DNA of 64,000 nt from Marsupella aquatica (taxonomy: Eukaryota > Plantae > Marchantiophyta): assembly GCA_973895155.1 (NCBI GenBank), contig OZ316891.1, positions 4,559,708-4,623,707 of the forward strand, in the 5' to 3' direction. Shown piece by piece: positions 7,601 through 41,514 of the stretch. The translations under genes and the position numbers were made by a program. How positions within the stretch are numbered: position 1 is the stretch's first letter; each line of letters opens with the position of its first letter. The notes below the pieces were generated by a model, which did not search any database, had not been told where the DNA came from, and worked only from the letters and a program-made list of their open reading frames with translations.

Positions 7601-7781
7601 TGTGTCCCTGGAAAGCTCATGATGCTACAAAGCTGGATATCCTGGTGGGTTGTTCAATGGCACCAGTGGGGAAATTTTATTCGAGTGGTATGACATCCAT
7701 CTCCTCTCTTGTCTTTCATTTCCATCAACTTTATATTAGCGCCAGGCGCTAGTATGATTTGCTCGTATTTCCTTGGAATGG

Positions 7782-13600: not shown

Positions 13601-15397
13601 TCTCTCCTTGACCCCAGTAAAGGGGTTTTCCATTGTAAGCCGGCTTAGGCCCACCTCTGGAGCAGTGTCCTGCATTGGTGTCGTTGCCGTTGCCATTGTC
13701 GTTGCCGTTCTCTTTTCCTTCTCCAGTAATTTCAGTAGATTCTGCATGCCTGGTTGCTGCATCGGCAAGTCCTCCGTCCTTGGCCTAAACACCTGCTCGA
13801 TTGTAGGACTGTTGGGCGGGTTGGGTTTCTCCATTGCCGGCGTCTGCTCCGGGACCTCCTCCGGTGCTCTTGTCGATAGGGGAAGTACTGGGGCAAAAAT
13901 TTGACTTCTGGCATACCGGCACAACAGCGGCATGTGATAGCCAAGCCGGGACACGCTTCCCACGCCAATCACCTGCTGTTCCTCCTTCAAGATTTTCTTC
14001 AGTTGGTTGAGGAGGTACCCGTTGTAATCCCGGCTTGGGTCTGGCCTTTCTGCCAGGTAGACCTGAGCCTTGCCGATCTTTGCCCTCGGCAAGTTATAGT
14101 GCATGGTTACCCGCAAGAAATCAATCATCTCTCCGATGTGCGGGTTGGTGCAGGTGTTCCGGAAGAAGCCATTCTTTGTTGATGGTCCTGGGAACGACCG
14201 AAACTCCTTGTCAGGTAAGGTCTTCCTGGTCTTATTACCCATCGGCAAGCCAAACACTTCAGCAATCACCCGGGGAGTGAGATAGAATTCCTTCCCATAC
14301 ACCCTTGTGGAATTGGTCTCGGACTCCCATGATCCCATGAATTCTAACAAGTCTGAGTCCGGCACCTCCGGCTTCAGCCATGGTAATCTTACAAAGGCTT
14401 CCAAGCCGGATCCGGCCATGAAGCCTTGGTACTTCTTGGTCTGCATAGCTGTAAAGCATGCATCCTCCTCTCGTGCAAAGTGTAATTGCACTTCCTCCAG
14501 CCTTTCCAGGTGTCATCGTTTGTTGGAATGGCATTGATGGGGTCGACCTCCTCCTCCTCGGCTTCTCTCTGCCTCCTGCTCTGCTGTTCTGCTAGCTTCT
14601 TTGGTGCCGCCGACCTCGTTCTTTTTTCCGGGGTGGCCTCTTCGTTGTTGTTCCCCTTCCTCTTCATCTCTGCTCCCCTGGATGTCTCTCCTAGCACGGT
14701 TGCCTTTGTCCACCCCTCCGTGCTACCCTTCAACTCCCAGTGTATGTTGTTGCAGCGTTTGATGGCTTCTCGGATGCCGACGACTCTATCTTCGCAAAAT
14801 AGTAGGTCGTCTAGCTCGTTGCCAATAGGCGTCCATAGGAATTCAGCCTTGATGAGTTCCCCTCCTAAGAAAGTAGCTTTCTGCAGCTCCCACAATCGGG
14901 CGAGCTCCTGCCGTTCTCGAGCTGCTCTCTCCGATTCTTCGTCCTCGTAAGTCCCAATGTACTCAGTTGCCCGTTCGAGCAGGCATCCCCAAAAATGTGC
15001 CGCTTGATTGACGTTGCTCATACCCTTCTCGAGTTGATAGTCGGTATCTATTCCCACCCTGAGCGCTTGCCTAAGCAGTTGACAGTAGTTGGCCGCCCGT
15101 AGTCGCCTGCCTAGTGCGTGCTTGCAAATGAGCCCCTACTCCTCGCGAGCGGTCCTTACCCCTCTCCTCCTAAGGTTCTCCCTCCCGTTGGTTACCCCTA
15201 GCTGCCGGCACTTAGCGTGCCCTAACCCTAATCATATTCTCTCCCCTGGTGTCCTTACTTCCGGCCTCGGCTCGGGTTCCATAGTCACCCTTAATTTTTT
15301 ATATTTTCCTTATTTATGTAACTATACTAAGGTGTTTCTAGGGTACACTTCCCTTTTCCCCTTAAACTAGCCCAGTGATTCCTGGCTAGGCATCACA
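10680..15397 (-). mobile_element. 4718-bp TG...CA element A with 5-bp TSD (solo-LTR-like, coding)
   Basis: Starts TGTGGTGC and ends GCATCACA (7/8 inverted match). Flanked by AGAAG at 10675-10679 and 15398-15402. Excision restores the MULE reading frame. Confidence 0.9.
11600..15057 (-). pseudogene. Long ORF of element A: plant-transposon accessory domain, low-complexity linker, long coiled coil
   Basis: Collinear ORF pieces 14389-15057, 12440-14491, 12170-12385 and 11600-12118, separated by one frameshift and stops. The motif LEFMGSW...TRVYGKEFYLTPRVIAEVFGLP resembles extra ORFs of Athila/Tat-type Ty3 elements. No gag, RT or integrase motifs. Confidence 0.65.
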
Positions 15398-17922
15398 AGA
15401 AGGTGCCTTGATTCCGAACTATACAGGGTCAGAATCAAGGCATGCGTCTATGAAAGCCTGGGCTACAAAGAAAAAAGTTGGTCTTTTTGAAGCATGCAAA
15501 GTGGACCAAAACCGAGCCCTGTCTCAAGTTGTGGGATACAATGCATATCGAAAAGGGTTGAACAGAGGAAAGGGACCGACTATATGGGAATTGGCGTTCC
15601 ATTCCGCCGATCAATCAGGTTCGCCAAGGTTATTTGAAGATGCGACCAACATGCTTCTTTCCAACGCGGCGGACTTCGATTTGGAAAGAAGTACTCCCCT
15701 TAACGGAGATATCGTGACCAAGTCAATGAAGAGAAAGGGACATGCAACTGGGACTGTCTCTCCGCAAGACTCCCACCGGCATGACACCGTTCTCATAACC
15801 ACACCAAATACTCATGGTTTGAAAAGGAAAAACATAAACAGAACTGACTTTGCCTCCATTCCCTCAAATTCTAATGATCCTGTGACAAGACTAGTGAATC
15901 TCTCTGGTATGGACACACCAGATGGTGATACTGATTCACTGGACAATACCCCTCAAACAACCCGTACAACAAGATCCACAAAACCTCCGCTCAGTGCACC
16001 AGCCTCACTTCAGAATCCACTTCCACGGATGATTGTGCTAGAAAAGGATGTCCCTCTGGGGCAGTGGCAGTTGCGATGGGCGTCCAAGTATGGAGCAGGT
16101 CCCCAGTGTAATGGGACACTCAATGGGAGTTCTGATCGCAATGAGTGTCAAAATCGTATCAAGAAGGTTGGCTTCCATTCGTCTGACGGTGTTGTTGGAA
16201 TTGTTGTGAAGGGCCATCGTCTCTTCAAGGGCGAACGGATCTCCGAAATGATTTGGTTCTGCCCAAACCAAACCTATTATAAGAGTCGTCCGCGTCGTGG
16301 TGTTCATCAGCTTCCTCCTCTTCCTGAAATTTTGCCTGTTCTGAACGGTACGAGCCTATCTCCTTCTGAAATCACGTTCCTTGAAGAGCAAGGACTTGTC
16401 TTAGCCCGAACAACAGGATCGAGTCGATCTGCGCCATCTTTGTTTGACCTCAGGATAAATGTGACCGTGTTCCCAAAAACGATAAGGTTTTTGGAGCCAA
16501 ATGTCCGGCTGGGTAGTCGGAATGGGAGGAACTCAAGACCTCGGTCTAATCTCACTGTGGGTCACACTAAGCGAATGGAGTCTGCACGACAAGAAGAGAT
16601 GAGTTTGATGGGGAATGGAATGTTCGGACTGGAAATGCTTTTGGAAAACAATTTTGAATTCAAACCCATGAGAACCTTCGATCACCAAACACGTACTTCG
16701 TGCAATTAAATCTGTATCTTCCCTGCTTGCTCCTGTGAGGACTTCTTCCTATGACATTCGCATGGCAAGTCGTACATGCCTTGTAAACATCTATACTGGG
16801 TGTACATAAATGTTTTCAAACTTGAGGTTGAGGAGTCGACTCTTTGTAGCCAACCAATTTTAACTGTGGGCGAAGTCAGGCTTGTCTTGGAGAGGCAGAA
16901 ATTGAATGGCTTATAATAGGGGCCGAAACTTCCGTATAGGTCGTTCAATATAACGGATAGTCACTATTTTGTCTTTACTTAACAGATATGTTACTTGTTT
17001 TATTCAGTATTTTTTGGTTAGCGCCAGGCGCTGCTTCCAAAAATCTTATTTTTCTTGCTTTTTTATGTACGCGTGTAGTGTAAGCATTACAACATGTTTT
17101 ATTTAAAATGTGTAAGTTGATATCATTATGTTTTATCTTTCAAGCCGCGTTTATTCAATTATTCTGAAATAAATCGTTAGGTGGTGTTTTGTCGTTTGTT
17201 TGTCACGGTACTCGGTCCATTTAAGTGAACTCATTTTGATTGAGTTCATTTGGACACTACTCTTCACTTGTTCTGTGGTGGGTCCCACCCTAAGGTTCAC
17301 TTTTTAGCTTGGACGAATAGTGATATTTGAATGAATGTTTCATTGAGTATAGTCCCCATACCGTGTCATTTATATACCCTAAATAATTGTTTGTTTTAAA
17401 CCTAATTCACTAAAGCAAAATTCTGTGATTAGCGTAGTTTTTCATTCGGACCAAAGGGCTATGGTTGATGCAAAACTGGTAACAGGGAATCGCTTACTAG
17501 TAACAGTTAAATTTGACTATTAACAACAAAAAATTTCCTGGTAACAGGTTTTTTGTTTTCTGTCATGGCTATCATACCCAAGGCCTTGTCTGATGGTAAT
17601 CCGTCATTGCTGGCGCCTTACTGGGTGCCATTAATGACACCTTGACGTCTGCAAATGGTACAGTTTGGGCACTCCAAACCAGTAAGTATGGTGCCATATA
17701 CATATATAAATAAATAAATATATATGCATTTACCAACGCTAGGTTCATTGCATCGAAATGAATCTGCTTCTCCAGGTTCTGCAGGTTTTTTCATGTTGCC
17801 CAGTCGATATGTATCAAGAGGTAGAGATGTTGAATGAATGTGGTTTTCTACAATATATTTATATTGCAAGATTCCCTAGCACTCATGCACTATCACTATT
17901 GATGTGCATGTACATATTGCAG

Positions 17923-19183
17923 GACATGTCCATTTTTGTTCCGAGAGCATATTGTTCCATGAGTCCCAATCTGGCTCATAAAGTATGCCAATCGTATTCA
18001 GGTCCCTCTCCTCAGGGTTTTGTTGTCTCAGGAAAGACCTCCAAGAGAGCGGGGTTACCGGAGATAGGTCCCTCTCCTGAGGGTTCTACTGTCTCAAGGA
18101 AGGCCTCCAATGGAGCGGGGTTACCGGAGATGCCTGACATTGAGGAAAACCCTCTTTCAAAACCGAAGACGCGAGTGTTGGCATTAGCTGGCCATGAAGA
18201 AGATGCAGAGGGAGGGGCGGAAGTAGAGCATAGAGAGGAAAGCAAAGCAGATGATGCGGTCAGGTCCAACGATGGAGAACCAAGCGAGGATACTGAAGTA
18301 CTGGATACCACTACATGCAGCCAGGAGAGAACATCGTCAATGTCAACTATCAACTTGCAAGTTGATTGCTTCACTACATCCACCCAACTTTACATTGAAT
18401 CTGACAAGGATGATGAAGACACTAATATAAGGCCTAAAGATCAACCGGAACCGGAGGTACGAGTGTTTTGTCATGCTAGTTGCGTTCTTATATATCATAT
18501 GTACGTAATTAAAATTAAGACACCGAGTTTGCTTTATACTTATTTTTCAGGTAAAAAGACAAAAGATTGAGAGCAGTCCCGCAGGGGAAACAACCTGCTA
18601 CTGTCCAAGGTATATATCATATATCATTGTATGTATAAGTTCTGTATATTGCAATTATTATAATGGCCTAAAAGTTCTATTGTAAGTGATGTATCTGACT
18701 TTGCAATTCATTCTACTTTGAGCCTAGGTTCACCAATATATACAATGATTTGCACATCCATATATGCATGGCAGGTTAAGACCGAGAAGGAACAAGGTGG
18801 AGTCCTTGCAAGCATTCAAGACCTAAACCAACCATTGAGTAGAGCACGAAGAGGCAAGGGTCCGAACCCAGGCAAAGAAAATGTACCTTCATTTAGAGCT
18901 ATTTCAACAAAGGTACAGGAGGATGCAAGGGAACGATTGTTGATTGGCAAAAACATTGTATGATTTCTTATTTGCATCCATTGTAAGCCAACAGTCTTTA
19001 TTAGGTTGCAGCGATCATTGTGTACAATGTGTAGACATAAATTGTATGTGTGGAACGTACTCTTGTGGTCTCATTATGTGGTCATTATTTATGTACAGGC
19101 AAAGCAGGAAGAAGTTTTGTGTGCTCAAGGAACCCGGTCAACGAGAAGTAACAAGTCCCAGGCTTTTGGAGACTCCAATATAG
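17923..19183 (+). CDS. Putative multi-exon, low-complexity acidic protein downstream of the MULE transposase (possible accessory gene)
   Basis: Exon-like blocks with AG/GT borders at about 17923-18457, 18551-18608, 18775-18912 and 19099-19183, separated by AT-rich introns. No recognised domain. Confidence 0.4.
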
Positions 19184-20149
19184 TAAGCATATACTGAGAA
19201 GTTTTGCACGATTCTGTAAATAATCATTTATAAACACCTATTTGGGTAATAGTGTGACTTTTTGTTTCCAGAAATTCCCAAATACATATTATTAATTTAT
19301 TAAATATTTTTATTATATTAAAATTATATATAACAATGGAAAGAAGTAGTATAAAGTAAACACAAAATTAAGTTACCATCTCAGTTCATCAATAAACAAT
19401 AGTTCTCACTTTTAAGGAGCTATTAGCTGTTTGGGATTCCAAACTAACCCCAATGTTCAAAATGCACAATAGTGTAATATTTTATTTCCAGAAATTCCCA
19501 AATGCATTAATATATTATATTAATATTTAATTTAATTTAATATAATTATAAACAACAATTTACTTAACTTTCATTTCAGTCTTTTGGTAGCAGTCCCGAA
19601 AAGCTTCCAAATATCATTTATGGGCATAAGATTTAGTCAGATTCGTGCTAATTAAAGATATTGAATCCTGGTTGGACCTTGCCCAGGCATGAAATTGTGC
19701 AAAAAACACCCTCAAAAACGTCAAGCAGGCAACCTTATTGGGGAGTTGTCCTCGCCAGAATGGGTTTGGGAGCAGTCTGGGCCGGGTCTGGGCCACGATC
19801 GGGGGAGGGTCGGGAGCCGTTCAGGAGCTCTTTGGGAGTTTGGGAAGGATCCGAGGAAGTCTAAGGGATAATTAGGGAATATACCTCAATTGGTTGTTTT
19901 GTGTTTACGTGCCCGCCAATTAGTGAACTTGTCGCTTAAATGACCAATGCAACCTCTTTTATCACACTTATGTTTAAATTTTACTTTCTTTGCGCACACA
20001 TTCAATTTGGTGCAACAAATATAATAACAAATTTACTAACACAGATACTGAAAAGACAGAATTGAAACAAACATAGATTTGAGAATAGAATTACAAAAAT
20101 AGTCAAAATATTATTTTATTTTAATCAAACAGTACATTGTGCATTAAGA

Positions 20150-20881
20150 GTGAGCTAAAATCCACTCCTCTATAAAGTAAGCTACTTTCTACTTGTAACT
20201 AAGTATGGGCTCTAAATTTTGTGACATGATCTACGTTTCCCTTCCTTTGAAATACCGGACAAGATTTCCATTTCTTCTTATTTGTCTCCCAAGCTACATG
20301 TAAAGACTGTAGGGACCAATCCGGATAATAGTCTTAAATATATTGAAACGAATTCTCGAACTCGTAAAATCGAGAAAGATAAGGAATAAGTTGAGTTCTC
20401 AAAAATCTATCATCTTCATCTCCATGATATGGAGAAGGATATAAAGATGACCAAAAAGGGTTGCAAAATGTAAATCTGGCAAATCTAAAAGTGTCACGCT
20501 TTCTCTAATTATATGTGGCATCTTAAGGTACACAGTTTCAAGTAGTTTCAAATAAACAAAGTCTTGGTTCACATCGAGACCGATTCTCGATAATTTTTCT
20601 TTCCCAAAGGAAAACCTGAGGGTACTCCTTTCACTGTCGCTTAGTAATACTGCCAGGTATTTTGTCAGTATTTTTATTGACATCCGTGACCATATTCCTA
20701 CACTAAAATTCTCAAAACAAAATTTCATAAACTGGTGGAAAAATGGTCTTGTACATATTGTAACATTGTCCACCGCGATGAATCTCGACTTGTTGGTCTT
20801 CGATGATACCTCACAAGGATAATAAAGAAATGCATCCATATCAAGTACAAGCAATCTTGTACCTTTAAAATATTTCACCAC
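20150..20881 (-). pseudogene. FCP1/NIF-like (HAD, CTD-phosphatase family) domain
   Basis: LLVLDMDAFL, TRPFFHQFMKFCFENFSVGIWS, YLKLLETV and VTLLD; frameshifted continuation CNPFWSSLYP. Confidence 0.75.
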
Positions 20882-21099
20882 CTGTACCAAATAAAACAAA
20901 ACATCAAAATATTACTCACATAATTATGTAACAACCCATATTTATGATGTCAATTTCATTAAACATTTCACTTGGGAATGTATTATAAAATGAAGTCTGA
21001 TAATAGCCTAACTAATATTTTTACGCATTAATTGGAGAACTACTTCACGTCTACTTTCACTTCGACTACTCCAATGAAACAAATATGGTTTTCCTAAAC

Positions 21100-21694
21100 T
21101 TTCACAATATCCGAACATAATTACAAACATTCCGCAATTATAGGAATCCTCCTATTTCGGAATATCTTTTGGAAAGGATCGGCTCCAACCATTAATATCA
21201 GAAGAAGCTAATCCTTTATCTTTCGCTTTGTCTAAAATATACCGCCACAAATTGTCCAGGACTTTAGAATCTGCATTATGAAAGGAGTCTAAATATTTCA
21301 AACTATTTTTCTTGAAGTCAATGACAGCAAGACTCCAATGAGAATTTTGGAGAATTGGTACAAAAACTTTCTCACAGTCGAACAAGCTATATCCTAGTCT
21401 TGAGGACCATCTTGATATGCAGGGACTATAACAATATCCATTCTTGGTGAGTTCACCATAATACCATGTGTTGAAAAAATGACATCTTGAAGATATCTTT
21501 TTTTTCTTTAGTAAAATGAAGTATCCATTAATAATATCCGAAGCCAGCCAGTATCGTGGACGGAGAGATTTCATAACGTTACGAGTGATGTCGATGTCAT
21601 CGATAGTGGTCAAAACCTCTCTATCATCCAAGGATAGACTGAGGCAATTGTCTATCAACCTCTCGCTACTTGCAGATAATGTAAGAGGCATTAT
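21100..21694 (-). pseudogene. Ulp1/SENP (peptidase C48) SUMO-protease domain
   Basis: WLASDIINGYF, HFFNTWYY, VPILQNSHWSL, YLDS and P-K-stop-EDSYNCGMFV; the oxyanion Gln position is a TAG stop. Confidence 0.9.
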
Positions 21695-22199
21695 CTGCAA
21701 AATCAAAGTTTAATTTAGCAACCTATTCGTTCGAGAAAAGTTGAAACCACCTAAAGCTTCACTCAAATTATAGAAATTGTACCTTTGGAACTCGTGAAGA
21801 AGCAGACTCTGTTCTTGAGTTTATGGCTTTCAAATCTGATGCCGACAGTGTCTCTTTTTCAGTCCCATGAAAACTTGAATCAACGTCCACCATTGCAGAG
21901 CAGTCCGGCGGAACAGCATTCCGCGGCTTAACGAAGTCTTTCTTAAAACAATCCTCAAAATCGAGCTTCTGCTTTGAAGATTCCAAATTGGATAACTTTT
22001 GTTTCTTCAAGCGTCGTCCCCCAAAAGGGAGTCTTAACTCCCTTAAAGTATCTGCGCATTGCATGTCCGTCGCCATGTCCAAGCTTGTATTGTCAGCTGA
22101 TAAATGGATGAACTTGTCTGCTTCATTGCTAAGCGCATCCGGCGACCACTCTCCATCTTCTTTTCCACTAATTTCAATCCTGTTCTTCCCTTCACTATT

Positions 22200-23900
22200 G
22201 ACCCTTTTTTCCTTCTCCATCTCTTCTCTTTCCCTTTCTTCTGCATCTTTCCTCTCCTCTTGTTTGTCTTGAGCTCCTCTCCTCTCCTTCTCTTCAGCTT
22301 CATTCTTCTCTCGCTCTTCTGCATCTTTCCTCTCCTCCTCTTGTTTGTCTTGAGTTGCTCTCATTTCCTTCTCTTCGGCTTCATTCTTCTCCCGCTCTTC
22401 TGCTTCTTTCCTCTTCTTATCTTCTCTTTCTCTCTCTTGCCTCTCTTCGGCTTCTTTCCTCTCCCTCTCTTCTCTTTTTCTCTCTTCTACATCTTTCCTC
22501 TCCCTCTCTTCCCTTTCTCTCTCTTCTGCTTCTTTCCTCTTCTTCTCCTCCCTTTCTCTCTCTTCTGCTTCTTTCCTCTTCTTCTCTTCTCTTTCTCTCT
22601 CTTCTCTCTCTTGGGCTTCTTTCCTCTCCCTCTCTTCATGTTCTCTCTCTTCTCTCTCTTTTCTCTCTTCGGCTTCTTTCCTCTCCCTCTCTTCTCTCTT
22701 TGGCTTCTTTCCTCTCCCTCTCTTCTTTTTCTCTCTCTTCTCTCTTCGGCTTCTTTCCTCTCCCTCTCTTCATGTTCTCTCTCTTCTCTCTCTTCGGCTT
22801 CTTTCCTCTCCCTCTCTTCTTTTTCTCTCTTTTCTCTCTTTTCTCTCTTCGGCTTCTTTCCTCTCCCTCTCTTCATGTTCTCTCTCTTCTCTCTCTTCGG
22901 CTTCTTTCCTCTCCCTCTCTTCTTTTTCTCTCTCTTTTCTCTCTTTTCTCTCTTCGGCTTCTTTCCTCTCCCTCTCTTCTTTTTCTCTCTCTTCTCTCTC
23001 TTTTCTCTCTTCGGCTTCTTTCCTCTCCCTCTCTTCTTTTTCTCTCTCTTCTCTCTCTTTTCTCTCTTCGGCTTCTTTCCTCTCCCTCTCTTCTTTTTCT
23101 CTCTCTTCTCTCTCTTTTCTCTCTTCGGCTTCTTTCCTCTCCCTCTCTTCTTTTTCTCTCTCTTCTCTCTCTTTTCTCTCTTCGGCTTCTTTCCTCTCCC
23201 TCTCTTCTTTTTCTCTCTCTTCTCTCTCTTTTCTCTCTTCGGCTTCTTTCCTCTCCCTCTCTTCTTTTTCTCTCTCTTCTCTCTCTTTTCTCTCTTCGGC
23301 TTCTTTCCTCTCCCTCTCTTCTTTTTCTCTCTCTTCTCTCTCTTTTCTCTCTTCGGCTTCTTTCCTCTCCCTCTCTTCTTTTTCTCTCTCTTCTCTCTCT
23401 TTTCTCTCTTCGGCTTCTTTCCTCTCCCTCTCTTCTTTTTCTCTCTCTTCTCTCTCTTTTCCCGTGTCTTCCTTTCCCTTGTCTTCCTTTCCCTTGTCCT
23501 CCTTCCCCTCCTCTTCCTCCTTCTCGTGCTCTTTCATCCTCTTGTTTCCCTTCATCTTGATCTTCGTCATCTTTTATTTCCTTCCATTCTTCCTCTTCCT
23601 TCTCATCATCTTCGTCGTCTTCATCCCCCTCGTGCTCCTCGTCATCTTTCTTTTGCTTCCGTTCACCATCTTCCCTCTCCTTCTCCTCTTGATCCTTTCT
23701 CTCTTCTTCCTCCTCCTTATCTTTCTCCTCCCTTTCCTTCCTCTCCCTTTCCTCTCTCTCCTTTTTCTCTTCTTGCTCCACTTTCTCCCGCCGTTCCTTT
23801 TTCTGTCGTTCCTTCCTCTCCAACTCTTCACTTTCCTTTTTTTAATTTTTTGACACGTATACTTTTTTTTCTTTTTTCCCTGAAGTTTCGCCCTCATCAA
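22200..23900 (-). repeat. Purine-rich coding repeat; core 57-bp unit x about 9 encoding EREEREKEERERKEAEERK
   Basis: TTCGGC anchors every 57 bp from 22953 to 23409, with degenerate copies on both sides. Confidence 0.9.
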
Positions 23901-26900
23901 CATTCTTTTTTGATTCTGAGGCACACTTCAAGTCAAATTTGAGTTTTTTTGCTGCGAGCTCAAGCTCTTTCTCTAACTCTGCCTTCTTTTTCCTCAACAC
24001 TTCGGCTTCTCTTTACCGACTTTCAGAATCCTCTGAATCTCCTACTGACTTTCCGCTCTCCCCACCTGGTGACCAACCCTCATTCCCAAAATCTGCATTC
24101 GCTGATTCGCTCTCGAAATCCCCATTAGAATGTAAATTGCTTCCTTCATGATCACATCTGGATTTGGAACGTTGTTCTCCCCTTTGCGAGTCATTCTCGT
24201 CATCATCGTCGTTCTCGTCATCATCACCATCATCATCGTCACGTGCCTCTTCCTCGCGTTCGGATTTCTCATTCTCCTTATCTTGGTCTTTCTCATCACC
24301 TGACTCCAATTCCTCATTGTGGTAATCGAGTCTCTTCAATGGACTAGGTAATCTCTTGGTTGAATGCGTCTGAGGGTCGACACCTAATATCACCCAATTC
24401 CATTTTTAGGTAAGTTCAAAATCATTTTAATTAACAAAACCAGCAAGTCCTACTAAGCGAGCGGAACACCGTTCCTTCCGCAAATCTGACTAAATGCATG
24501 GAACACCATTCCGTTCGCAAATCCAACTAATCACGCCAAACACCGTTATGTCCAAAAATCTGACTTAGCAAATCCTACTCAGCGCTTGCAAAACCTTTCC
24601 GTTCAAAAATCCGGGTAAGCGCGCGGAATACCGTTCCGTCCGCAAATTTAGTGTAGCCTCGTGGAACAGCGTTCCGTGGGCAAATCCGACTAAGCGCGCG
24701 GCAAACCCATACCGTCAGCAAAGACTTTGGAAGAACCCCACGGAACACTGTTCCGTCCACAAATTGAGTGTAGCCCCATGGAACTTAGTGCCGTCGGCAA
24801 ATATCTAACTCCAATGGCATGATCACATATACACAAAATCAACTTTAACTTTAAAAACACATACCGCCAAGAGGTCCCGACGGAAGGATCTGAGGAAGGG
24901 AGTAGAGAAGGCAATCATCATCGTTATCAGGCCGCTCTTGTAACCCATACTCCTTGATGACATGCTCTATTTGATGATCCGTGAGTTGATAGCTCTCGTT
25001 AAGGATGTCGAGGATATCGTTCCTCACTTCAAAAATTGACTTCTTCAAAATCTTTCTCCAAAGAAGGTTTTCAAATGTCTCACGCTTCGGACATTTTGGC
25101 TCTTCGAACGACGGATACAATGCGTTGAAGTAGTCAGACAAGAGGTCGTGGCTCTCGACAGGGCAGAAACTTGTCACAAATATAGAATTCCCCTATGTGA
25201 GAGAATCAATTGTGTTCATTAGTCATCAAATTGAGTTTAAACTTGCGAGAAACATGTAAATTTAAATAAATTCAGAAATCACACTTACCATTAAACATTT
25301 GATGAGACGACGATTGTCACCAAAACAAACAACGGAATCACCAGAGGATAGAAATAGTTTCACAAGATATGAAAAATATGTGGCAGTTTTCTCGTCGCTG
25401 AGACTCTCCGCGACATCGACTTCGTCATAATTTGCAAGCTTCCCCCTCAAGGAGTCTCTCAACAATGACTCCTTTTCTTCAGGAAGCGTCGAAGCCACAA
25501 ACGCTTCATCAAAAAAGGAATACAAGACATATTGTGTTCTTCGGCCTTCTGCTTCTAGCAAGATGTCATTTTCGTCTTTTTTGGAGCTTATAATCTCCAA
25601 AGGGTTGACTATTAGCACAACTTTATGTCGCGCAGCTCCAATAGTAGAAGTTGCTTGGAAAACCCGACGATAGAAATGATGGTCGTATGGACCATACTCA
25701 GATGTCCTCGTCGAATCAAAATAGAAAAGGTCCACCGGTGTATTCTCATAGGTTTGGGACAAACCATCAAAAAAGTCCTTTCCTCCAAACCCTTCAATCG
25801 ATTGCAAATGAAACAGATCATTTTTTTCACCACAAGCAAATTTCCGTTTTGGTCGACAGATCTTGAAATTGAGTCGACCAAACCTTTGAAAGAAGCCGGA
25901 ATAAGATCGATCAGTTCTGCCCAATTCATGTTGTTGAGCCTTCCAGATTGATATTGGCCAGGAGGTAGCAACTCCCTTAGCATATGCATCCGCTGCCCAT
26001 CAATATGGAAAAAGCTGCGAACATCAGCAACCTTCTCCTTCCTCTCATCTTTGCTCAAAATGCGGAATTCGTTGATTTTGCTTCTCTCAGTGAACTCCAA
26101 CAAAAATATGCATTCAAAAATACACTTATTCTTTTTCTCGAGGCAAAACTCCTCAAGTGACCTCCACCCTTCCATTTGAACAGGGTCGTAATTCTTGTCA
26201 TTCGTCCTTTTCGGGAAGAGCGACACCTTCTCTCTCGAAATCAAATACTTTGCTAGCTTTTTCAGATCTCGATCTTCAAGACCTTGCATATGCCGGAAAA
26301 ACCTTCTCCGGAGATCCTGATATGGCTTTGCTATGTGCTGGAGAACTTTATTTGAGTGGACGAGCAGACTATCTTCTGAGAGACATTGAACTTCCATCCA
26401 GAGCTCAAATGTGTCGTCCTTCATCTCAAACAAAAACGGTGCCATCTCGATGAATCTCATGTTTCCATTGACCATCACAGCTGTTGGGTACGCAATATGG
26501 GCCGCTGCACAAAATGGCTGCAAATGTAGAAAGTTAGAAAGATAATAATAATGAAGATCTCAGGATCCCACGGAACACTGTTCCGCAGCTCGAGCTCTTT
26601 CAATTATTTATCAAATGACCCAAGTCAAAGAAAAATTAACATACCTTCCACATTGAATTTGCTTTTTGTCCGCTCAATGATGGTGGTCTCCCGGACGACA
26701 CCCATATTTTCCTGACTTGCTTTGCCATCAGAAGAAACTGACTTTCTAGCATTGTTGCCTTGTTCATGTTGTTCAAAGCTTGTGAGAGGCCCATAATCTT
26801 CGTATTCCCAACGAGATTGAACGGTGTCCAGAAGAGAGTGGCTGTCACCATGAGGAGTTCCTCTTTTTTTTTGAATCAAATTTTGGATCAGAAATCAGCA

Positions 26901-28062
26901 ATTTGTAAGCCTCAATTGTATCCTGTCCTCCAATTATCCAGAAGTAGCAGTTCTTCACATCTTCAAGTGTTGGTCGAGACTTGAAGGGAGCTCCATTGTA
27001 GAATGGATCTTTCTAAGCTTTGCTTGCATCCCACTGGACTGGAACGAGGTAGACTCGAGTCTTCTCAAGTGTGAGGGAAGAATGACCCATCATTGAGCCC
27101 TTCAGAACTTCATAGTATTTCCGATCAAAGACTCGGCATTTGTAGTCATCGGGTCCTAATTTACATCGAAGTGTTTCCAGCTCAAAGGATTTTCCTTCAA
27201 ACAAAGTCACTGATTTATATTCATTCAGAAGATTACTAAACATTTCCTTTGCGTTCTTGTCATTAACTTCCTCTGGCAGATTTCCCGGACGGATCTCCCC
27301 TTTTCTCCCTACGATGAAGTCTTGAACAAAATCTTCCTTACTCCACTCAAAAATACTCGTGAAGTAGAAGGTAAGAGTATCTCCGGAAACTACTTCTGGT
27401 GTTATTGGAAAACGGATGTCTTCATTGAGTAGTCGGTGGGAAGTGAAATCTTTGTACTTCTCTGTCTTTTCCAACCCAACTCCACGTCAATCCCCGCTTG
27501 GTCAAACTTGTTGTACTCTGGGAGCCTCAAGCAAACAGCAATTTTGGTTTGCTCCTCAATATCTTCCAGCAAAAGGCAGAGACACTCTTGATACTCGGCA
27601 AGACCAAGGTTTCGTTTGAAGAATGAACCAACTATCTTGTGGTCGGCTATTACGGAGAGTGACTCCATCTCGACACAAAGAAAAAGGCATCCCCCGTACC
27701 AAACCACCCCCCATCTCTGACATTTCTCCATCTTCAAGGGATGGACTGATTTTGACTCGTCACAAAAAACCTTTGGAATTTTTTCCCCCTTGAATCTTCC
27801 CAGCGGAATGTCAACGTCATGACGAGTCACCTTCCAAACTTTATTCCTTCAGGGTGTTTCAGACTGAGCCTTTCTTTTTGACGATGAAGTCATTGTGGAA
27901 TCCATCTGCACAAAAAAATGATTAGGAGAGTCATGCTTGTCAACTGGCGGAACACTGTTCCGTCTGCTACTAATGAGCTGAAGGAGTTAATAGAACAATA
28001 TCCCAAAATGTCGTCCGCGCATTTTATTGAAAAAATTTGGAATACATCAAGTCCTTGAGTAC

Positions 28063-28599
28063 TCATTTTGGTAGGACCTGGAATCTCTTCTGGACTACTT
28101 CCCTCTCCTCAACATCTAAACTTTCCCACAACAACCAGAATAAGCAACTATCCAACGGAAGAAGTGATCCAAGTATCTCAATATTTGGAAACTCGTAGAG
28201 GTTGTCTCTAAAGACGTGTAGCAGATGGCGCGATGTTAAAAGGTTGGCTTCTGGAATGGTAGAAAGTTCATCATTGATCTTCTCTATTTTCTCGTTTGCT
28301 TCTATCAGAGAAAACCAAAATTTTGTATGTTTTACTAAAAATTGCCACTTCTTGTTGCATGACGCAAGTCTGATCATGGCAGTCGTCCTTGAGACAAATG
28401 ATTCTTGATAAAGTCCTCCGCAAAAGTGATCCATCAAAAGAGGCCAAATTTTGTCAATCACCAAACTGTCTGGTAGACCTTGCATGTACATAGAATAGGT
28501 ATTGAGCCTTTGTCTTTCAAATTTTGCCACTTTCTCAAGATCTTTGAGTAAATCGCAAACCTTCTCAACCTGCACGGCTCTGCTAGAGACTTCGTCCAT
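28063..28599 (-). CDS. Small F-box-like protein (178 aa)
   Basis: MQGLPDSLVIDKIWPLL...IRLASCNKKWQFLVKHTKFW follows the F-box pattern (LP..l...I...L..V.K.W..L). The ORF is intact. Confidence 0.55.
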   Translation of the reverse strand: MDEVSSRAVQVEKVCDLLKDLEKVAKFERQRLNTYSMYMQGLPDSLVIDKIWPLLMDHFCGGLYQESFVSRTTAMIRLASCNKKWQFLVKHTKFWFSLIEANEKIEKINDELSTIPEANLLTSRHLLHVFRDNLYEFPNIEILGSLLPLDSCLFWLLWESLDVEEREVVQKRFQVLPK

Positions 28600-28629
28600 C
28601 CTGTTGGATTGATCAAACGGAACTTATTA

Positions 28630-29184
28630 TTAGCAAATTCTATCTAGATTTGAAGCCATTCTCGAGATATCCGGTTTTGTAACAGAGTAGAGTAAAATCC
28701 CATTTTTTGATGGGATGCAGGAGGTCATATGCCTTCGTGAATGTTTCTCGAAGGTTCTTGGGCATCGATCCCAAAAATTTAATTTCTGGATACTTTCAAT
28801 AGAAGCTATAGGTAGTTTGTTTGAGAAGAGGAGCAGGAATGAAATCAATGGGAAACTTGACTTCCGTGGGTTGAAAGTCTAAAATAGTCATATTGAGGAC
28901 GCCATGATATACGTATTATTTATCAAGTGGCGCCATCTGCAAGAGACAGACCTCATCAAAATCAATGAATTCAATTTTGAATCTGAGAATGAACTTTGAT
29001 CTACCAAGGTATTAAAATATCCTAGACATATATTCCAGATTAACTGCTCCACGAGTTCGTTCGGAAGCCCTGGAAGTAGACTTTTTCCCAAGAGATCGTA
29101 TTCTTGCGTAAGAGAACGCTGGAGTGTGATACGTCTATCAAATGTTGGGCAAAACTTATTGAAACACTTAACGCCTTTTTCCAT
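28630..29184 (-). pseudogene. Second F-box-like ORF (interrupted)
   Basis: LLPGLPNELVEQLIW...LMRSVSCRWRHLI; stop at 28888, then continuation to about 28630. Confidence 0.55.
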
Positions 29185-30589
29185 TGTGTCTGCAATTGCA
29201 TGAGATTTGTATGAAAGTCAGAGTTTTTCCGCCTTGTCTAACAAACTAATATCTTACATTCTATGTCCGACGGAACACTGTTCCGCAGGGTGATTGGGTT
29301 GGTTTGGGCGGAAGACTTGTGATTGGTGATTGCCTTGGTTTGGGTGGAAGACTTCTCCATTGAGAGCTATGCTATTGCGGACTCTAAAACGGATAGTACA
29401 TTCGAGCAGGTGGAACAGCGTTCCGCAAGGTATTCCAGTTAGATTCACCTTGGGAGGAACCCTCTTGATTCTTGGCCCCCATTGAATTTCAGAGGAGGCG
29501 GAAGGTCATTCGAGTGGGTGGACCACTTAGATTCACCTTGAGCGGAAGACTTTTCCCTACTGGGCGGAACTCAATTTCAGAGCCGGCGGAACACCGTTCC
29601 GTCGGGTGTTCAACTGAGGATCTGCATGGGGTCAACCGTTTTCTTTCCTGAGCTGGATTGAATTTCAGAGGAGACGGAACAACATTTCGCCTGATGTTCG
29701 ACGAAGGTTCACCCAAGGCGGAACAACATTCCAACATATATATTCTCTCAAAGAGGTTTCAGAGCAGGTGGAATAGCGTTCCGCCTGATGTTGGACGAAG
29801 GTTCAAACTGGGCGAAATAACATTCCGTCATATATATTCTCTAAAAGAGGTTTGAGAGCAGGCGGAACACCATTCCGTGGGGATTTTTTGACCCCATCAA
29901 TCAGCGAGACACCACTGAGAGTATGCTGTTTGGTGTGTGACGGGGTTTCACAGCGGGCGGAACACTGTGCCGTGGGGTGTGCAACGTCGTTCAAGAGCAT
30001 GCGGGACACCTTTCCGTGGAATAAGTGGATCCCATCAAGAAGGAGAAGACTGATGAAGAGGATCTGAGATTCTACGAAAGATAATCTAAACCCAAAATTA
30101 TATTCGTACAAGAAAGCACGGGATTCGTTTAATGCATCAAATCAATGACTAGTTCCTAAAAGAGAGATTGGATTGTCACCTGAATCCGCAAATGATATAG
30201 TGTGAGATCTTTGTGAGTGATTGATGAAAGAGAGGCCTGCACCTGAATGAGGAAACCTAGCATTACTTAAAACATCCATTAACATCCACTGAGACTGAAT
30301 TGTCATAAGAACTATCACTAGCAGACTGAAGCAGCTGGAAACTACAAGCCCTAAAACAAGAAGCCATGAAAAGACCTCTTCAAGTGTGCAAACATGTACA
30401 GTAGAACATACACAAAGTGGACAATTGAAGTTACAGGATAAATCTGACATTACCAATCTCAGGAAAAGGAGCTGTCAAGCAGGAGGAGTTGATCACCTGA
30501 AGCTGTTGATGCCCTAAACCAGTCGATGAGCTGAATCAGTTGATGATCTGAGGAGCTGAAGTAGTCGGACAATCAAGAAGAGAATGAGT

Positions 30590-31020: not shown

Positions 31021-33606
31021 ATTAAGTGGTGCCTCTAAGTGAGTCCTTGAGGCATGTGTTAGGGCACCCCTAAACTAGATTAGGAAATACATCATGGAGG
31101 AGGGATTTGGACCCCTCATCTAGGCCCTCCAATCTCCAAATAAGTTGGTGCAAATAGCATGGATCCAAAATGGTACATACTCCTTATAAAAGGACCCTTG
31201 AGAATGGTTACAAAGTAATTGAACTAAAACTAAGTATTACTCTATGTTAGTAAGTGGATACCCTATAACATCCATAAATATCATTCAGACAATGTGTATA
31301 TAATGAGGCCCATGCATGGCCATTGACATGTTCAGCATTAGTCCATGATTATTTTGCAGTTGTGGGCAAGGCTCCATCCTCACTTTGGCCTGACGGTTAT
31401 TCTTACAAACGACAACATCTATGGAGTGTCTATTGATACCAAATTTTTTGCAAGAAACCAATCTTGTTTTGTAATAGTAGTCACACTATTTGGTATTAAT
31501 GGAATTGGTTACATTTTTGGACAATAGCATGGACAAAACATACATTAAATTGAGAGTCAGAGCCCAGGCAACTAATTTACACTAATTTACAACACTCAGG
31601 CCCTCCAACTGCTTTGCCTATTTAAACAACTCATAGGTGGTGTCAACCACATAAATCAGTTATCATTAATAAAACATTTTAGTTAGAGAGAGAGAAACTC
31701 TTACAAACAACTTTGAATCAGATTGAGTGGATTAAATAATTGTCACTCTCCAATAACTGTTAGTAGAATATGTAAATCTCCCCACAAATTGTAGAACTAC
31801 AAACTTATACACTAATATTAGAGTCCAATAAATATAATTTCATGCAACTTCAAACCATTCAAGTGCCACATCCTCCATAGCCCTAAACCACTCTTAAAAA
31901 TGTCATGCTGTAGATATTCATTCGTGCCAAAGTGGTCACAAAAGCACGATCAAAAATGGCAATTGTTGGGCTTACCTAGCATTTTCATAGTTGAAGAAAC
32001 ACAAACGAATTCACTACTCAAAGAACCTAGTAAGTTAGTGGAAGTCAGCCATAGAGTAACATATCTGTGAGTCCATAGAGCCAACAAATACAAGCTTGTC
32101 TGATATTGGGAGCACAAAGGAAGCACCGAGAGACCAGCAATAAAGACCATAAAAATGAATGAATTACCAAAATTATCATAAATAATGGAGACGACCAACA
32201 CCGCTTCCTCCATTGAAAGTGGGAAATTGTTGAGTATTGACAAACGACCACAAAACCACTCGAGCCCCCAGCATATACGTTGAAAAAAAGAGGGCCGAGT
32301 TGAGATGGACAATAGAACAGCCAGTCTCAGAAGATGTGAGAAATGGCCCTGGTCACTCCAAGAGTGGACCGAACAAGAAAGAGTGGTCATGCCAAGATTC
32401 ATGCCAAGATTTTGAGTATTCTCCGGAACCCAACTAAACAGGACCACAGGAGCACTGAATGGACATACTTAAATAGATAATTTCCCATCTTAGCAAGGGC
32501 TATTGAGTATAATAAAACTCATATCACACCATCACCTTTTCGGGGTGAAGAGCAACCCTACAGTTGGCATAGATGCAAGGGTTTTGGAGGGTGCCCTCCT
32601 TGAGACCAGTGGCATGCCCCTTGGTCCGACTCCATCAAGAATGAAGGAGTTGGTCAAGCTTATGGTGATAGGTAAGCTTAGAACTCTTGAATTTCTCTAC
32701 AAGTTGGTGTACTCTTTCATGTGACTTTGGATGACTTTTATTAGAATATTAGAGACTACGCTCTTGGCACCGCAATTGAGTTGATAGCCCGCGCCGCACC
32801 ATAATAGGCGCCACACCGCATTTGAGTTGATTGCGTACATGGAAGAGTAGATAGAGTACTAGGTTAGATTTCACTAAATCATGTTGCATGCATCCATATA
32901 TCGGGGGATGCAGTATTGTAGGCCATGCAATCTTATAGTATGCCATGTGTCATGTCAGTTGTTTACTTGAGTTGGCTCTACTGTATAAAGCCTTGAGCCC
33001 ATTTCCCAGTAATTCAAGCGTTCTTTACTTTACTGTAAATACTCCAACACTCTCCACACATGAGCTCACTCTCTCCCTCAAGCCACTTTGTTGCAATGAG
33101 CATGCATTATCACACAAGTGGCTTACACTAGCCCTGGTATATGCAAGGTCACACACAACTTACTTACTAACCTATTTACCTCACCTAAGTCCCTAACAGT
33201 GGTAAGTTAGCCTAATTGCCATAACCTATGAGTGACAAGACTAAGAGCAGAACAAACACCCCCCATGTACCCCTTCTTAGTATTTCTGCTTACAAAAAGA
33301 TACCTTGTTAATGTAAATTAAAGTATTAACTTTTCCAATTAAATTTGATCCAAGAATAATATAACTTCACACAATGAGCCAACTCTAACAAACATTGTTT
33401 GAGCACTTGGTGTAAGAAAAGGGCAATGCGGAAAATGAGAGCAGTCACTCAATCTCACACTACACCAACATGACACCATGATCATACTTGGAGAAACTCC
33501 GTAAGGATCCATTTGATAGCTCATGAATGATTGAGATGGAACATGTGAAGAATGAGGGAGAGAATGCTCTCCCTCTAACCTATACCCTCCAAGGGGGACT
33601 AAGATG

Positions 33607-36600
33607 TGTCACGTCATCAACCTTGGTCTTAACTCGGGCTTCAGCTTTAAACGGGCACCTCCTTCATAAATATGAGGGTTCGGGCAGGGAGGGAAGAACG
33701 TAATGCACCTAATTCACGTAAACTAGTGCTAAGTGCGCCTACTGTTAGATACGGACATCTCCTAGGTATGGTTTGTGTTCCGCCGCCGGAACGTACCTTA
33801 GTCGATAACAGGATCGACCCCGGCTTAAGGACTTCTAAGCCTTCGTGTTGTCCGCCTTCAATCCGGATTCTATGATATAGGTCCTCAACCCGTGCTCGCA
33901 ACCACATACCCGCAAGCTGCACCCCGTGCACGACTCGGGTAGTGCGTTCGGCCCGGCGTTGTCACCTATACACGAGATTCACACACACATACACACGCAC
34001 AAGCGTACAATCTTGATTTACACGAAGGACATAATGGGAAAGGATTTTACTACATAGGGGACATGTGCGTACACTTGGTTGACCCGACAGCTCCGGAATG
34101 AACAGGTTCAAGGCCAAGGGAGTACACTACAACGGAGCCCGGCTCCGCACTCGCCCGACGAGCTTAGTCCTACCCCCTCCCCTTGGTACTCCTTCACTCC
34201 CAGAGGTCGAGACTCCCCGCACATACCACGGATGTCCAACTCTGAGACTAAAAACCCCCTGCCTCTATCGAGGGGTGCACTAAATACTAAGGGCCGAGGA
34301 ACGGAGTGTCCTCCCGCCCGAAGATTCGCTGACTTAGGTCCTAACTAATCTGACCGTCAGGCCGAAAAACGGCTGTGTCTTATTAGAAGATCCTAATCTA
34401 TGCAGGCTGGACAGCATGGCAGTGCTGCTGTAACTAAGGCAGGTGCCTGTCCCAATAGCCTGACTTAGCTATTCCTAACCCTATTCTATTCCTACTCCGC
34501 CGCTAATGCCTGGCACGCTTGCCAGAGCCGCCTGAGTGGGAGTGGCCATCCCGCTGCTTACGAAGTCTGTCGTTGTCTGCCTTGAGGAGCTGGACCTGGT
34601 CCAGCAGAGATTCATTCTCTCGCTTTTCCGTGTCTGTCTCCTCCGTTGCCTCTTGGCATGCCTCCTCCAGCTACTGGGCATCGCTCGTCAGCTTGCCCGC
34701 CAGCTGGTCCTTCTTCTCGGCTTTGGTTTGGAGCCACGCCACTTCGGCCTGTAACGTGGCTATCTCCGCAATGTCCCGCTGGGCCCGTTCTTTGGCCTCC
34801 TCCAGGTCTTTCTGCCAAATGACAGTTTGATTCTTCAAACTGTCAATCTGGTTCCGGAGTCGTGCAATCTCGGCCTCATTCCTAGCTTTGGCCTGCTCGG
34901 CTAGGGCGGTAAGGGCGTGCACCTTTGCTAACAACTAGTCGGCGGCTGGAACTTTGGGTCGTAGTTGCAGAAGCTCAGCCTCTTGAGCTGCAACTTCGTT
35001 CTTTAAGTATACGGACTCCACCCAGTACCATTCTATCCTTTGAAGGGCCTCTGACTGGGCCCGACCTGCCTTTACTGCAGCAACTAACTCCTGATTGAAG
35101 AAACAGGCTACCTTCCGGGCCATGAACTCCCTGGTATCCCGGGCAATTTGATGAGAGAAATCTCCCAGAAGCCCGTTCAGAAATGTACCCGGTACGAAGA
35201 GTTCCGGGTGGTCCAGGTTGTGCTTGTCCGGAGTTGGGCACGGGCAGACGTCAACACGCGCGGGGGCCGGGGCAGTGACATCCAGCCCTGGGGACGTAAT
35301 GTTGGAAGGGGCTGGAGTGTCCTCCTACAGCAATGTCCGGTTCTCCGAAATAGCCACCGGTGGGTCTTTGGGAGACCCGGGCTCGAGTAAGACCTCCGCT
35401 ATACCTACTTCTGTACTTAGCCCGGCCTGTTGGATCACATCTACGGTTGCAATAACCGACCCATCCGGTACCTCCTCGGTTACGACTACAGCTACTTGTG
35501 GAGGTGGGGTGGGTGAAGCTTGCGTGTCTGCTGGACTTCGGGCCTCGGGTTGAGGCCGTCTCTCCAAGGCCGGGAAAACCCACCTAGCTGGGACCAGCTT
35601 TGTAACGTTGACACGGGGAAGGGTTCATCGATCAAACCGAGCGTACCACTCAAGAATGATCTCGATGTGGCTAGCGAAATACGCCTTCCCGCCAATGTAT
35701 AGCGTCTTCTTTCGCCGCTCCATCTCTTCATGGAATTTCTTAGCGAAGTACGACGCCCACTTCCTAGGTCGATAGTTCTCGACCTGGATAACCTGGGCGG
35801 CGGAGATCTCCCCCCGGGGTTCCATCATGTGGAGGGCGTACCTTTGGAACTCCAGTCGCTCAGCTATCTCGGGGATGAGGCAGGTCCTCATCACGAACCC
35901 GTTGTCCACTACTCCCTCTGAGGGAAAACTCGAGGATTGGTACTTGGCTCCCTTGCCCCCGGGAGCCCGTGATTCGACTCGATGGTCACCTTCGGGTAAT
36001 CCAAAGATCATCTTGAGCCGTTCTTCCGTGAGGGACATATTCCTTCCCCGCAGCCGAGTATGTTGATGTGCATCATCATAATTCTTGACGAATTCTGTCA
36101 TGTCCTCCCCGTAGTACCTGTAAGTGTTCCAGGGGAGAGAGGCGAGGTGCTCGAATCCCTGAGTCTTCAGGTACACCGCATGCTTGGGATGGAGGATGTT
36201 CTTATGCACGTTTTCCCCCATGCGGTGCATTGTTACCTTGGCCACGGCTACCGTGGCCAATGGTAACTCGGATACAGTGGCGGGTTCCTTCCTCTTCTTC
36301 CCCCGTGACTGGCTCAGGGAGGGTGACACCTCCCCATCCTCTCTATCGGGCATAGATAGTGCTACCGCCGTTAGTATTGGGCCCGGGGCGGCCACGGTCA
36401 CCGTGTTGTCTGCTGGAGCCGCTCCTTGGGTCCGAGCATGGGGAGGGGACGATGTAGTGTTGGCCCCCTGAGTGTTTGCTCCTCTAGGCCGCTTGAGCAA
36501 GGGTGGGGTAGCCTCGTCGTCGTCGCTAAGGTCCACAGCGTTGATGATGGAGCGTACTTGTACTGCTGGTGGGGCGATCGGCGGTGGGGGTTGGCTAGGC

Positions 36601-37633
36601 TGAGGCTGAGACTGAGACTGAAGCTGAGCCTGAGCCTGAGTCTGAGTCTGAGTCTGCATTGGTGCGGGTATGGGTATGGGGTCGACTAGGCCGGCGCCGG
36701 CGGTTGCGGGTCTATTTCCCATGAAGCTCTGCAGGTGCTGGTAGAAGTTCTTCGAAGCAAGTGCAGACGACCTTGTCGAACGGGTAGTGCTGGACTCACT
36801 ATTGATGATAGCCCAAACCTGAGCAGGGATGTGGTCGAAGTGATGTTGTTGCAAGTTGATCGTACCCGGGATATTGAAGACCTCGTCCGGAAGCCGAAGC
36901 AATGCTTCCTAGAAACCGATATATTTGTCTCTGTTGAAGAAGTACCCAGATACCTGTGCTGGTCGGTAAAGCTCGCTCTGAGATGGGTAGTCAAAGTTAA
37001 GGATGTAGTGGTGTCGTCCTGCTAGGCGAATGGCTCTCTCGTACTCGCGTTCGATTTCGTATCGGCGCGAGTTGGCGTGTTTCAATGAGTCGGCCAAGTG
37101 TCTTCCGGTAGATAGGAACTGCATCCAGAATCAAATGGCCGAACTGGAGAGGATCGTGTGCGACATTCAGAGGAGATAGTAGTGGCGACTAAGAGTGAAC
37201 GAGAGAGCTGGGGTTGAAGCTGGCGCGTGGACTGATGGACTGGTGCACTACAAAGGGTCGGCTCCCTTTTTATACCTTGAGGGCTTGTCGATCCCCCGAC
37301 ATCTCCTCGTTGCCTATAGGCTGAACCGTTCACGCTTGTAGTGTACCGGCCACTCCGCCGGTCTGAGTCACCGCGTGTCAGTGGACGCCTCCCGAAGTTT
37401 GTTATATGGACCCGAGGGAGGGGCCTCTCCACGCTCGTAACTCGGGCGTGCGAATGGCGACGCGCCGCCAGCCCGAACATGAATTCCCCTTATTGACTAA
37501 TGATTTCCTACGCATAATGGCTACCTAAATATTGTCGTTATGCTAATCATAGCGGCCTAAGATACCCCTAATGCGCGTGCTAAGCACGGTTTAGACCGAA
37601 TTACTCATTACTCGCCGTACCGGCGGCGTCACA
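33607..37633 (-). mobile_element. 4027-bp TG...CA element B with 5-bp TSD (solo-LTR-like, coding)
   Basis: Starts TGTCACGTC and ends GGCGTCACA (7/9 inverted match). Flanked by AGATG at 33602-33606 and 37634-37638. No internal terminal repeat seen. Confidence 0.9.
34481..37124 (-). pseudogene. Long ORF of element B, homologous in its core to the element A ORF
   Basis: Pieces 36909-37124, 35625-36902, 35325-35567, 34935-35123, 34671-34934 and 34481-34681. Core LASLPW...EFVKNY...TRLRGRNMSLTEERLKMIFGLPEG...NGF...TC matches element A; C-terminal coiled coil. TATAAAAAGG on the minus strand near 37270. Confidence 0.7.
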
Positions 37634-41300: not shown

Positions 41301-41514
41301 TCGGCGGAACACTGTTCCGTGCGGTGTTGGAGGATATTTAAAATGAGAGAGGGGTATTCATTTAATCTTGAGGGACTTTTGAGTCGTGATGGATAATTAC
41401 CTACATGACAGTGTTCCATTGTATTTGTCAATTAATTTATGAGAGATACATTATTCTTATCAGTAACCATGTTTTGGATTTAATTGTAATTGGTTCATCT
41501 GTTCTGACAGAAAC

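Follow-up and report, generated by a model that had tools for sequence, protein, structure and literature searches.

A decayed Ulp1-containing gene near a DUF7869 transposase-like gene in the liverwort Marsupella aquatica: a candidate transposon accessory gene with a possible anti-silencing role

We describe a minus-strand gene that ends in a Ulp1 protease domain, referred to below as the accessory gene, and a DUF7869 transposase-like gene, both found on contig OZ316891.1 of the liverwort Marsupella aquatica (positions 4,559,708 to 4,623,707; this whole 64-kb stretch is called the window). The closest described systems belong to transposons, and statements about them and about the other cited works refer to the accessible parts of each source. 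VANC and KIU (Kaonashi) of the VANDAL Mutator-like elements act via short non-coding motifs, and some carry captured Ulp1 (PMC13317346). In Ectocarpus, the 21.5-kb element Sola1-1_Ec32 carries, opposite its transposase, a gene for a 1104-aa protein joining a ParB-like region to an N4C/N6A methylase (PMC12477816). In the red alga Bostrychia, Plavaka elements with the accessory genes PAG2 and PAG3 have a ParB-like gene (ParB E value 0.29) beside inverted-repeat arrays (bioRxiv 10.1101/2025.02.11.637652).

The locus shares features with each of these systems. As in Sola1-1_Ec32, with which it was compared by description, an accessory gene would lie on the strand opposite the transposase of a large DNA transposon with imperfect inverted ends, and a ParB-like domain, putative here, would precede an N4C/N6A methyltransferase fold; binding to its own element has been proposed for the Ectocarpus protein. 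In contrast, the land-plant protein has a predicted fold without the catalytic motif, and a Glu/Arg/Lys (E/R/K) linker and Ulp1 come after it, giving ~2,000 aa, and Ulp1 is not mentioned for Sola1-1_Ec32 in the accessible text of PMC12477816 or in five supplements searched. With VANC/KIU the locus has in common a Ulp1 protein, here probably transposon-encoded, and a short motif enriched in the non-coding parts of the element (21 of 22 sites here). Unlike VANC/KIU, its neighbour is a DUF7869 gene rather than a MuDR transposase, the part presumed to bind DNA derives from bacteria or phages and its motif is a 15-bp palindrome; Pfam returned no family for the N-terminal frames and thus no sign of VANC homology, without a direct comparison to VANC. 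Because the KIU capture of Ulp1 is dated to eudicots (PMC13317346), the Ulp1 of the window family would be an independent capture. PAG2 and PAG3 likewise combine a weakly significant ParB-like domain beside repeat arrays with amino-methylase cargo, whereas in Bostrychia two different genes carry the fusions, ParB with a 2-oxoglutarate (2OG) oxygenase and the methylase with SET, and the accessible text does not mention Ulp1. An earlier note on this DNA had presented the combination of domains as an unrecognised fusion. This view stands for the joining of Ulp1 to ParB and methylase, of which our literature search found no case (bioRxiv supplements not covered), and falls for the ParB-methyltransferase core, which is already published (PMC12477816). 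What is new is the fusion to Ulp1, an active site that is probably dead, the presence of the palindrome in introns and the occurrence in a land plant.

Our reading, to which we give a probability of about 0.58, is that the window gene is a dead copy of an accessory gene of a ~26-kb DUF7869/Sola-like transposon, which would have acted in anti-silencing via a palindrome-tethered Ulp1. Intact copies likely encode a protein of ~2,000 residues comprising a putative ParB-like region, a predicted inactive beta-class methyltransferase, a charged linker and Ulp1.

Gene model, decay and relatives of the accessory gene

The accessory gene has five exons on the minus strand (27905-21008), starts with an ATG at 27905 and totals 6103 nt of exon sequence, or ~2,030 codons:

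26645-27905, minus strand: exon 1, an N-terminal region of no known family, then the ParB/Srx-like candidate (about 27200-26880)
26518-26644, minus strand: intron A, GT-AG, 127 nt, with one palindrome site inside
25289-26517, minus strand: exon 2, a helical domain, then most of the predicted beta-class amino-methyltransferase fold (about 25870-25289)
25193-25288, minus strand: intron B, GT-AG, 96 nt
24865-25192, minus strand: exon 3, probably the final methyltransferase strand, plus about 100 residues matching no known family
24384-24864, minus strand: intron C, GT-AG, 481 nt, with five palindrome sites inside
21783-24383, minus strand: exon 4, a low-complexity linker of acidic and E/R/K sequence, interrupted by several stops and frameshifts
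21695-21782, minus strand: intron D, GT-AG, 88 nt, phase 0
21008-21694, minus strand: exon 5, a Ulp1/SENP (C48) protease domain ending at TAG 21010-21008

All four GT-AG introns connect open frames in phase, as the earlier note had claimed. Two homologues (P0010 and P0015) cross intron A, and similarity to three others (P0001, P0004 and P0006) stops at the same Val-Ser/Arg as the intron B donor of the window. The peptides quoted in that note are also present, as is its in-frame stop, which is the TAG at 27015-27013. The frames do not yield a single product in this copy: they are interrupted by frameshifts near 27471, 26863 and 25950-26000 and by stops, namely, a TGA near 27850, the TAG at 27015-27013 and others near 24015, 23576, 22772 and 21154, with further breaks in the low-complexity exon 4. 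The window copy of the gene is dead. The proposed fusion of five domains, the fifth being an FCP1-like phosphatase, describes a real gene and overstates it, given a dead copy, an FCP1 join that is not supported and a ParB assignment that has no profile support.

The family was compared in four public sequencing runs from two organisms, in which 56-63% of sampled words were present. Between 343 and 717 contigs per run aligned on 19.5-30.5 kb at 85-100% identity, indicating a repeated family; these contigs may be paralogues, alleles or sequences of a sister species. Five of the breaks (27471, 26863, 24015, 23576 and 21154) are absent from related contigs among the differences listed, which comprised 40 of 1204 substitutions and 12 of 92 indels and did not extend to the TAG at 27015-27013. 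A diverged subfamily covering the Ulp1 and FCP1-like exons (21025-21143 and 20850-20885) was observed in runs X3 and X4, its contigs having ~12-15 times the depth of the near-identical contigs; a larger related family may stand behind these deep contigs, depth not being equivalent to copy number.

A full HMMER scan with the helical part of exon 2 as the query gave 16 matches, of which 15 were retained and one, a Streptomyces repeat protein (P0016, E 1.6e-4), was discarded as a chance match. Ten of the 16 were looked up: three came from the liverwort Calypogeia fissa, six were Logan proteins and one was the discarded repeat protein. The shift at 25950-26000 is read through as a single frame in 4 of the 15 homologues and is a frameshift in the window copy only. 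Word-indexed homologue searches gave no match, scans of metagenome and viral contigs gave no relative, and tblastn against phages and plasmids returned chance rows only.

Palindrome arrays and the candidate element

A 15-bp palindrome, CGGAACANNGTTCCG, has 39 strand matches in the 64-kb window for 0.9 expected. These correspond to 22 sites (at most 2 mismatches), 21 of which are non-coding under the gene model, and the density is six sites in 918 intron bases against one in 6838 exon bases. The sites and the other parts of the candidate element are distributed as follows:

21909-30016: 17 palindrome sites, 6 intronic, 1 exonic and 10 upstream of the accessory gene
40755-41319: 5 palindrome sites upstream of the DUF7869 transposase gene
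41874-44795, plus strand: DUF7869 transposase-like gene in three frames (Pfam 3.8e-36), head to head with the accessory gene
19170-19550: candidate degenerate left end, A+T-rich and internally duplicated
45050-45220: candidate degenerate right end, in inverted orientation to the left end

No palindrome site was found in the window outside 21.9-41.3 kb or within 30.1-40.7 kb. The DUF7869 gene shows the acidic motifs HDKMD, LQLDN and HEDVD by eye, and DUF7869 is, we believe, linked to Sola transposases. Sola1 DNA transposons are marked by a DDD transposase, terminal inverted repeats and a 4-bp target-site duplication. A published table records Sola1 for Physcomitrella, and no literature mention of DUF7869 was found among the matches listed. 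When inverted partners of the 44.8-45.3 kb segment were sought, the best was 19.0-19.7 kb, which scored 63 where the next unrelated window scored 48; 2 of 300 local shuffles reached 63. Taken together, the palindrome, the head-to-head DUF7869 gene and the degenerate inverted ends suggest a DNA transposon of ~26 kb, with limits that we infer from these ends.

Alternatively, the gene could be cargo of another mobile element or belong to an expanded host-like family, with the DUF7869 gene, 14 kb away, as a chance neighbour; the protein would then bring a SUMO protease to DNA all the same, only not for the candidate element. Such an arrangement would agree with the several unrelated elements in the window, the ~10 kb of foreign sequence between the two genes, the weak ends with no target-site duplication found and the shifting of algal ParB accessory genes among transposon families (bioRxiv 10.1101/2025.02.11.637652). 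However, one and the same rare palindrome is concentrated at the two genes and absent from the rest of the 64 kb, the head-to-head layout is that of Sola1-1_Ec32 and the candidate inverted ends flank exactly both genes, and we consider a chance neighbourhood unlikely.

Several further features of the palindromes were noted. The exonic site at 21909-21923 is nearer to the consensus in related contigs via a silent change at 21918. At 29400-29880, upstream of two F-box-like frames, the palindrome lies within a tandem unit of 88-94 bp, and at 40.88-41.12 kb it repeats every 110 bp. CpG and CHG ratios showed no clear pattern. A scan of viral contigs for palindrome pairs returned two loci; the frames of one (L001) were read and were unlike the window gene.

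Other features surround or interrupt the candidate element. Between its two genes lies an intronless, broken copy of ribosomal protein L14p/L23e (37951-38373, plus strand; Pfam 2.5e-21), likely a retrocopy. Retroelement-like blocks, recognized by eye and with frames that have no Pfam match, occupy 33600-37600 and 11200-15200, and a 980-bp stretch is present in two inverted copies that are 85% identical (11227-12205 with 46011-46977). A reverse transcriptase frame of the long interspersed nuclear element (LINE) type, with 846 codons and a zf-RVT domain, lies at 8007-10547 on the minus strand. This LINE and the next block apparently split a transposase-like gene (5007-7758 and 15390-16900) that has no Pfam family above the cut-off and in which a palindrome-like motif, ATACTAGCGCCNGNCGCTAGT, is repeated. 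Four frames at 55700-59900 on the minus strand are CACTA/Plavaka-like by eye, with no Pfam match above the cut-off, and satellite-like arrays with periods of ~220 bp and 158 bp are found at 60840-62380 and 45262-45656, respectively.

The protease end, the neighbouring frames and the predicted methyltransferase fold

The assignment of exon 5 to the Ulp1/SENP peptidases (C48) is solid at the level of sequence: the exon matches Peptidase_C48 in Pfam at 4.8e-24 and SENP2 at 3.9e-29, the alignment covering residues 5-225 of 228 in the exon and 4-223 of 226 in SENP2. The catalytic His, Asp and Cys are present, and the codon of the oxyanion Gln is TAG in the window and CAG in related contigs. The Ulp1 domain of the earlier note is therefore confirmed, as is its charged ER/K linker, which corresponds in exon 4 to a 57-bp unit repeated 18 times at 22441-23461. 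In that note the FCP1 domain followed, less certainly, on the same product. Two kinds of frames flank the gene:

20150-20881, minus strand: FCP1/NIF-like phosphatase frame with the motif DMDAFL, preceded by an AG acceptor at 20882, its 3' part frameshifted
28063-29217, minus strand: two F-box-like frames upstream of the gene, Pfam E 0.07 and 0.16 (below cut-off), mutual similarity E 8e-7

The FCP1/NIF-like frame is present as claimed (Pfam 5.7e-8; UBLCP1 match E 0.014), and it was placed in the polyprotein without support. An in-frame TAG at 21010-21008 precedes it at the SENP2 end, and a stop in the same register occurs in two diverged contigs of run X4; the TAG is thus likely the natural end of the protein and the FCP1/NIF-like frame likely a conserved neighbour in a separate open reading frame. 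Related contigs of runs X1 and X3 moreover have 3 extra bases at 20999. These create an ATG with a GT directly after it, whose phase fits the acceptor at 20882, offering a start for such a separate frame. For the five-domain product to be real, FCP1 would have to be attached from a donor further upstream, by read-through of the stop or as an alternative final exon in place of Ulp1. The last route could be used, because intron D has a phase 0 donor that fits the phase 0 acceptor of FCP1. For the other routes, in-frame GT dinucleotides at 21124, 21043 and 21040 lie ahead of the stop and the gap from stop to acceptor is only ~125 bases; in addition, diverged contigs of run X3 keep the two exons adjacent across ~135-140 dissimilar bases. 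Yet those three donors match poorly and would cut the last helix of the protease, and with the recurring stop at the SENP2 end a joined product appears improbable. The FCP1-like and F-box-like frames likely represent separate cargo.

The amino-methyltransferase-like part of the earlier note was recovered as a predicted beta-class fold in the C-terminal half of exon 2. This prediction comes from an AlphaFold2 model of the relative P0001, built on an eight-row alignment (mean predicted local distance difference test score (pLDDT) 71, predicted template modelling score 0.46). Foldseek with this model gave 16 matches at E <=0.001, the best in the PDB being CcrM and RsrI (E 5e-6 to 5e-5), and the named top viral matches were N4/N6 methylases. 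In a structure-wide VIA search, the top 15 rows were all beta-class or MT-A70 (best Z 9.1, root-mean-square deviation 3.7, 165 residues aligned) and the first unrelated row had Z 6.0; since Z values below 8 are common, the uniform family of the top rows outweighs the Z value itself. The model also has the beta-class strand order, with the motif IV strand ahead of the motif I strand. This fold and order are shared with M1.HpyAVI, MboIIA, RsrI, CcrM, bdelloid N4CMT, the MT-A70 family and phage ParB-N6N4-methylase fusions, to which the window family is 3-14% identical and from which it differs in the absence of (D/S/N)PPY. Atlas searches gave leads only, namely, methyltransferase clusters at 0.86 and, from a poor model, unnamed clusters at 0.92. 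A PDB sequence search with the alignment A4 returned nothing below E 0.16, and the helical domain (P0001 residues 1-210) had no clear fold match within the search with the P0001 model.

The methyltransferase domain is likely a pseudo-enzyme, because (D/S/N)PPY is missing at the presumed motif IV strand, whose position was taken from the strand order: none of the six rows with letters there has DPPY or SPPY, and five of the six have Asp followed by G/S/C and T/S. In its catalytic state, the window family is presumably closer to the inactive partners METTL14 or MTA9. At the position of the S-adenosylmethionine (SAM)-binding motif I (FxGxG), the four rows read FGEG, FGEG, FSEG and FGDN. An active N4C/N6A methyltransferase has been proposed for the algal proteins, one that is guided by a ParB-like part and writes a protective mark. 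That intact copies of the window family encode such an enzyme is very improbable: although the beta-class fold is complete, a remnant of the SAM motif persists in two of four rows with the motif IV Asp in five of six and a liverwort employs a beta-class N4-methylcytosine enzyme, the Marchantia enzymes retain TSPPY (bioRxiv 2021.02.12.428880) where no row here has the motif, and Pfam found no methylase family in the window frame or in any of the eight homologues scanned.

Proposed mechanism and its significance

In the mechanism we propose, the N-terminal half of the protein (ParB-like region, helical domain and pseudo-methyltransferase) would bind the 15-bp palindrome in the introns and promoter regions of the element, a binding that we infer by analogy. 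The long E/R/K linker would provide reach along the element, and the tethered Ulp1 would deSUMOylate silencing proteins bound to the chromatin of the element itself, so that the transposase and cargo stay transcribable in the way of VANC/KIU on VANDAL elements. Such an anti-silencing role is plausible by analogy with VANC/KIU and the algal ParB accessory genes, aided by the palindrome arrays.

The ParB part of this scheme is plausible from one motif, YFWIIGGQ(D/H)TIEAY, and from the known pairing of ParB with N6N4-methylases (bioRxiv 2025.10.10.680097; PMC12477816); ParB-linked methylases are also named in PMC4738411, without the architecture seen in the window. The variable residue of the motif gives GQDT in the window and GQHT in related contigs, the His being found at full depth in all four runs. 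No homologues of the 27200-26880 stretch were found, and no family alignment stands behind the profile tests. A directed ParB hidden Markov model (HMM) was built from 10 of 11 bacterial and phage ParB domains (L015 left out). Box II was placed on YFWIIGGQ by hhalign both in the window version and in a version with the His and frame restored, and by the HMM in the restored version only, all at sub-significant scores; with hhalign, the restored version scored 17.2, above all 60 shuffles (best 16.8). Thus, the likeness to ParB announced in the earlier note survives as a single motif, with no match in any profile library tried.

A number of observations weigh against the reading as a whole. For the ParB-like stretch, a ParB/Srx profile match was absent in Pfam, PDB, PHROGs and NCBIfam, the directed HMM scored -2.0 bits on the window and -1.0 bits on the restored version (133 and 53 of 1000 shuffles as high, respectively) and the corresponding hhalign probabilities were 0.2% and 1.0%. 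In place of the Arg of Box II GxxR, which is required for nucleotide binding (bioRxiv 2025.10.10.680097), the motif has Thr. The methyltransferase fold was modelled on a relative 40-42% identical in that part and not on the window's own protein, for whose frame a single-sequence model failed (pLDDT 36). No intact full-length protein was found among the homologues, the longest of which has 454 aa. As for the element, the palindrome expectation is post hoc, the pattern having been chosen after it was seen; the candidate ends are weak and rich in A+T, and a target-site duplication was not identified at them; the ~10 kb of other material that separates the two genes is free of the palindrome; and the linkage of gene and transposase is observed at one locus only.

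A broader version of the proposal, which we regard as tentative and on balance doubtful, is that the locus represents a convergent counterpart of VANC/KIU in early land plants, in which a phage-derived ParB-methyltransferase that has lost catalysis reads a parS-like intronic palindrome and delivers Ulp1. VANDAL/VANC has been described as the sole known case of a transposon system that binds its own sequence and modifies it (bioRxiv 10.1101/2025.02.11.637652), and the role of captured Ulp1 in such elements is stated as unknown (PMC13317346). The window family, in a distant plant lineage, would bring together within one element a protein that may bind DNA, a sharply defined palindrome as its target and a protease. 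It makes testable whether algal-type ParB-methylase accessory proteins recognize their own element and whether a transposon Ulp1 acts by local deSUMOylation. If true, the convergent counterpart of VANC/KIU would be a compact module for targeted de-silencing, with phosphatase and F-box cargo alongside.

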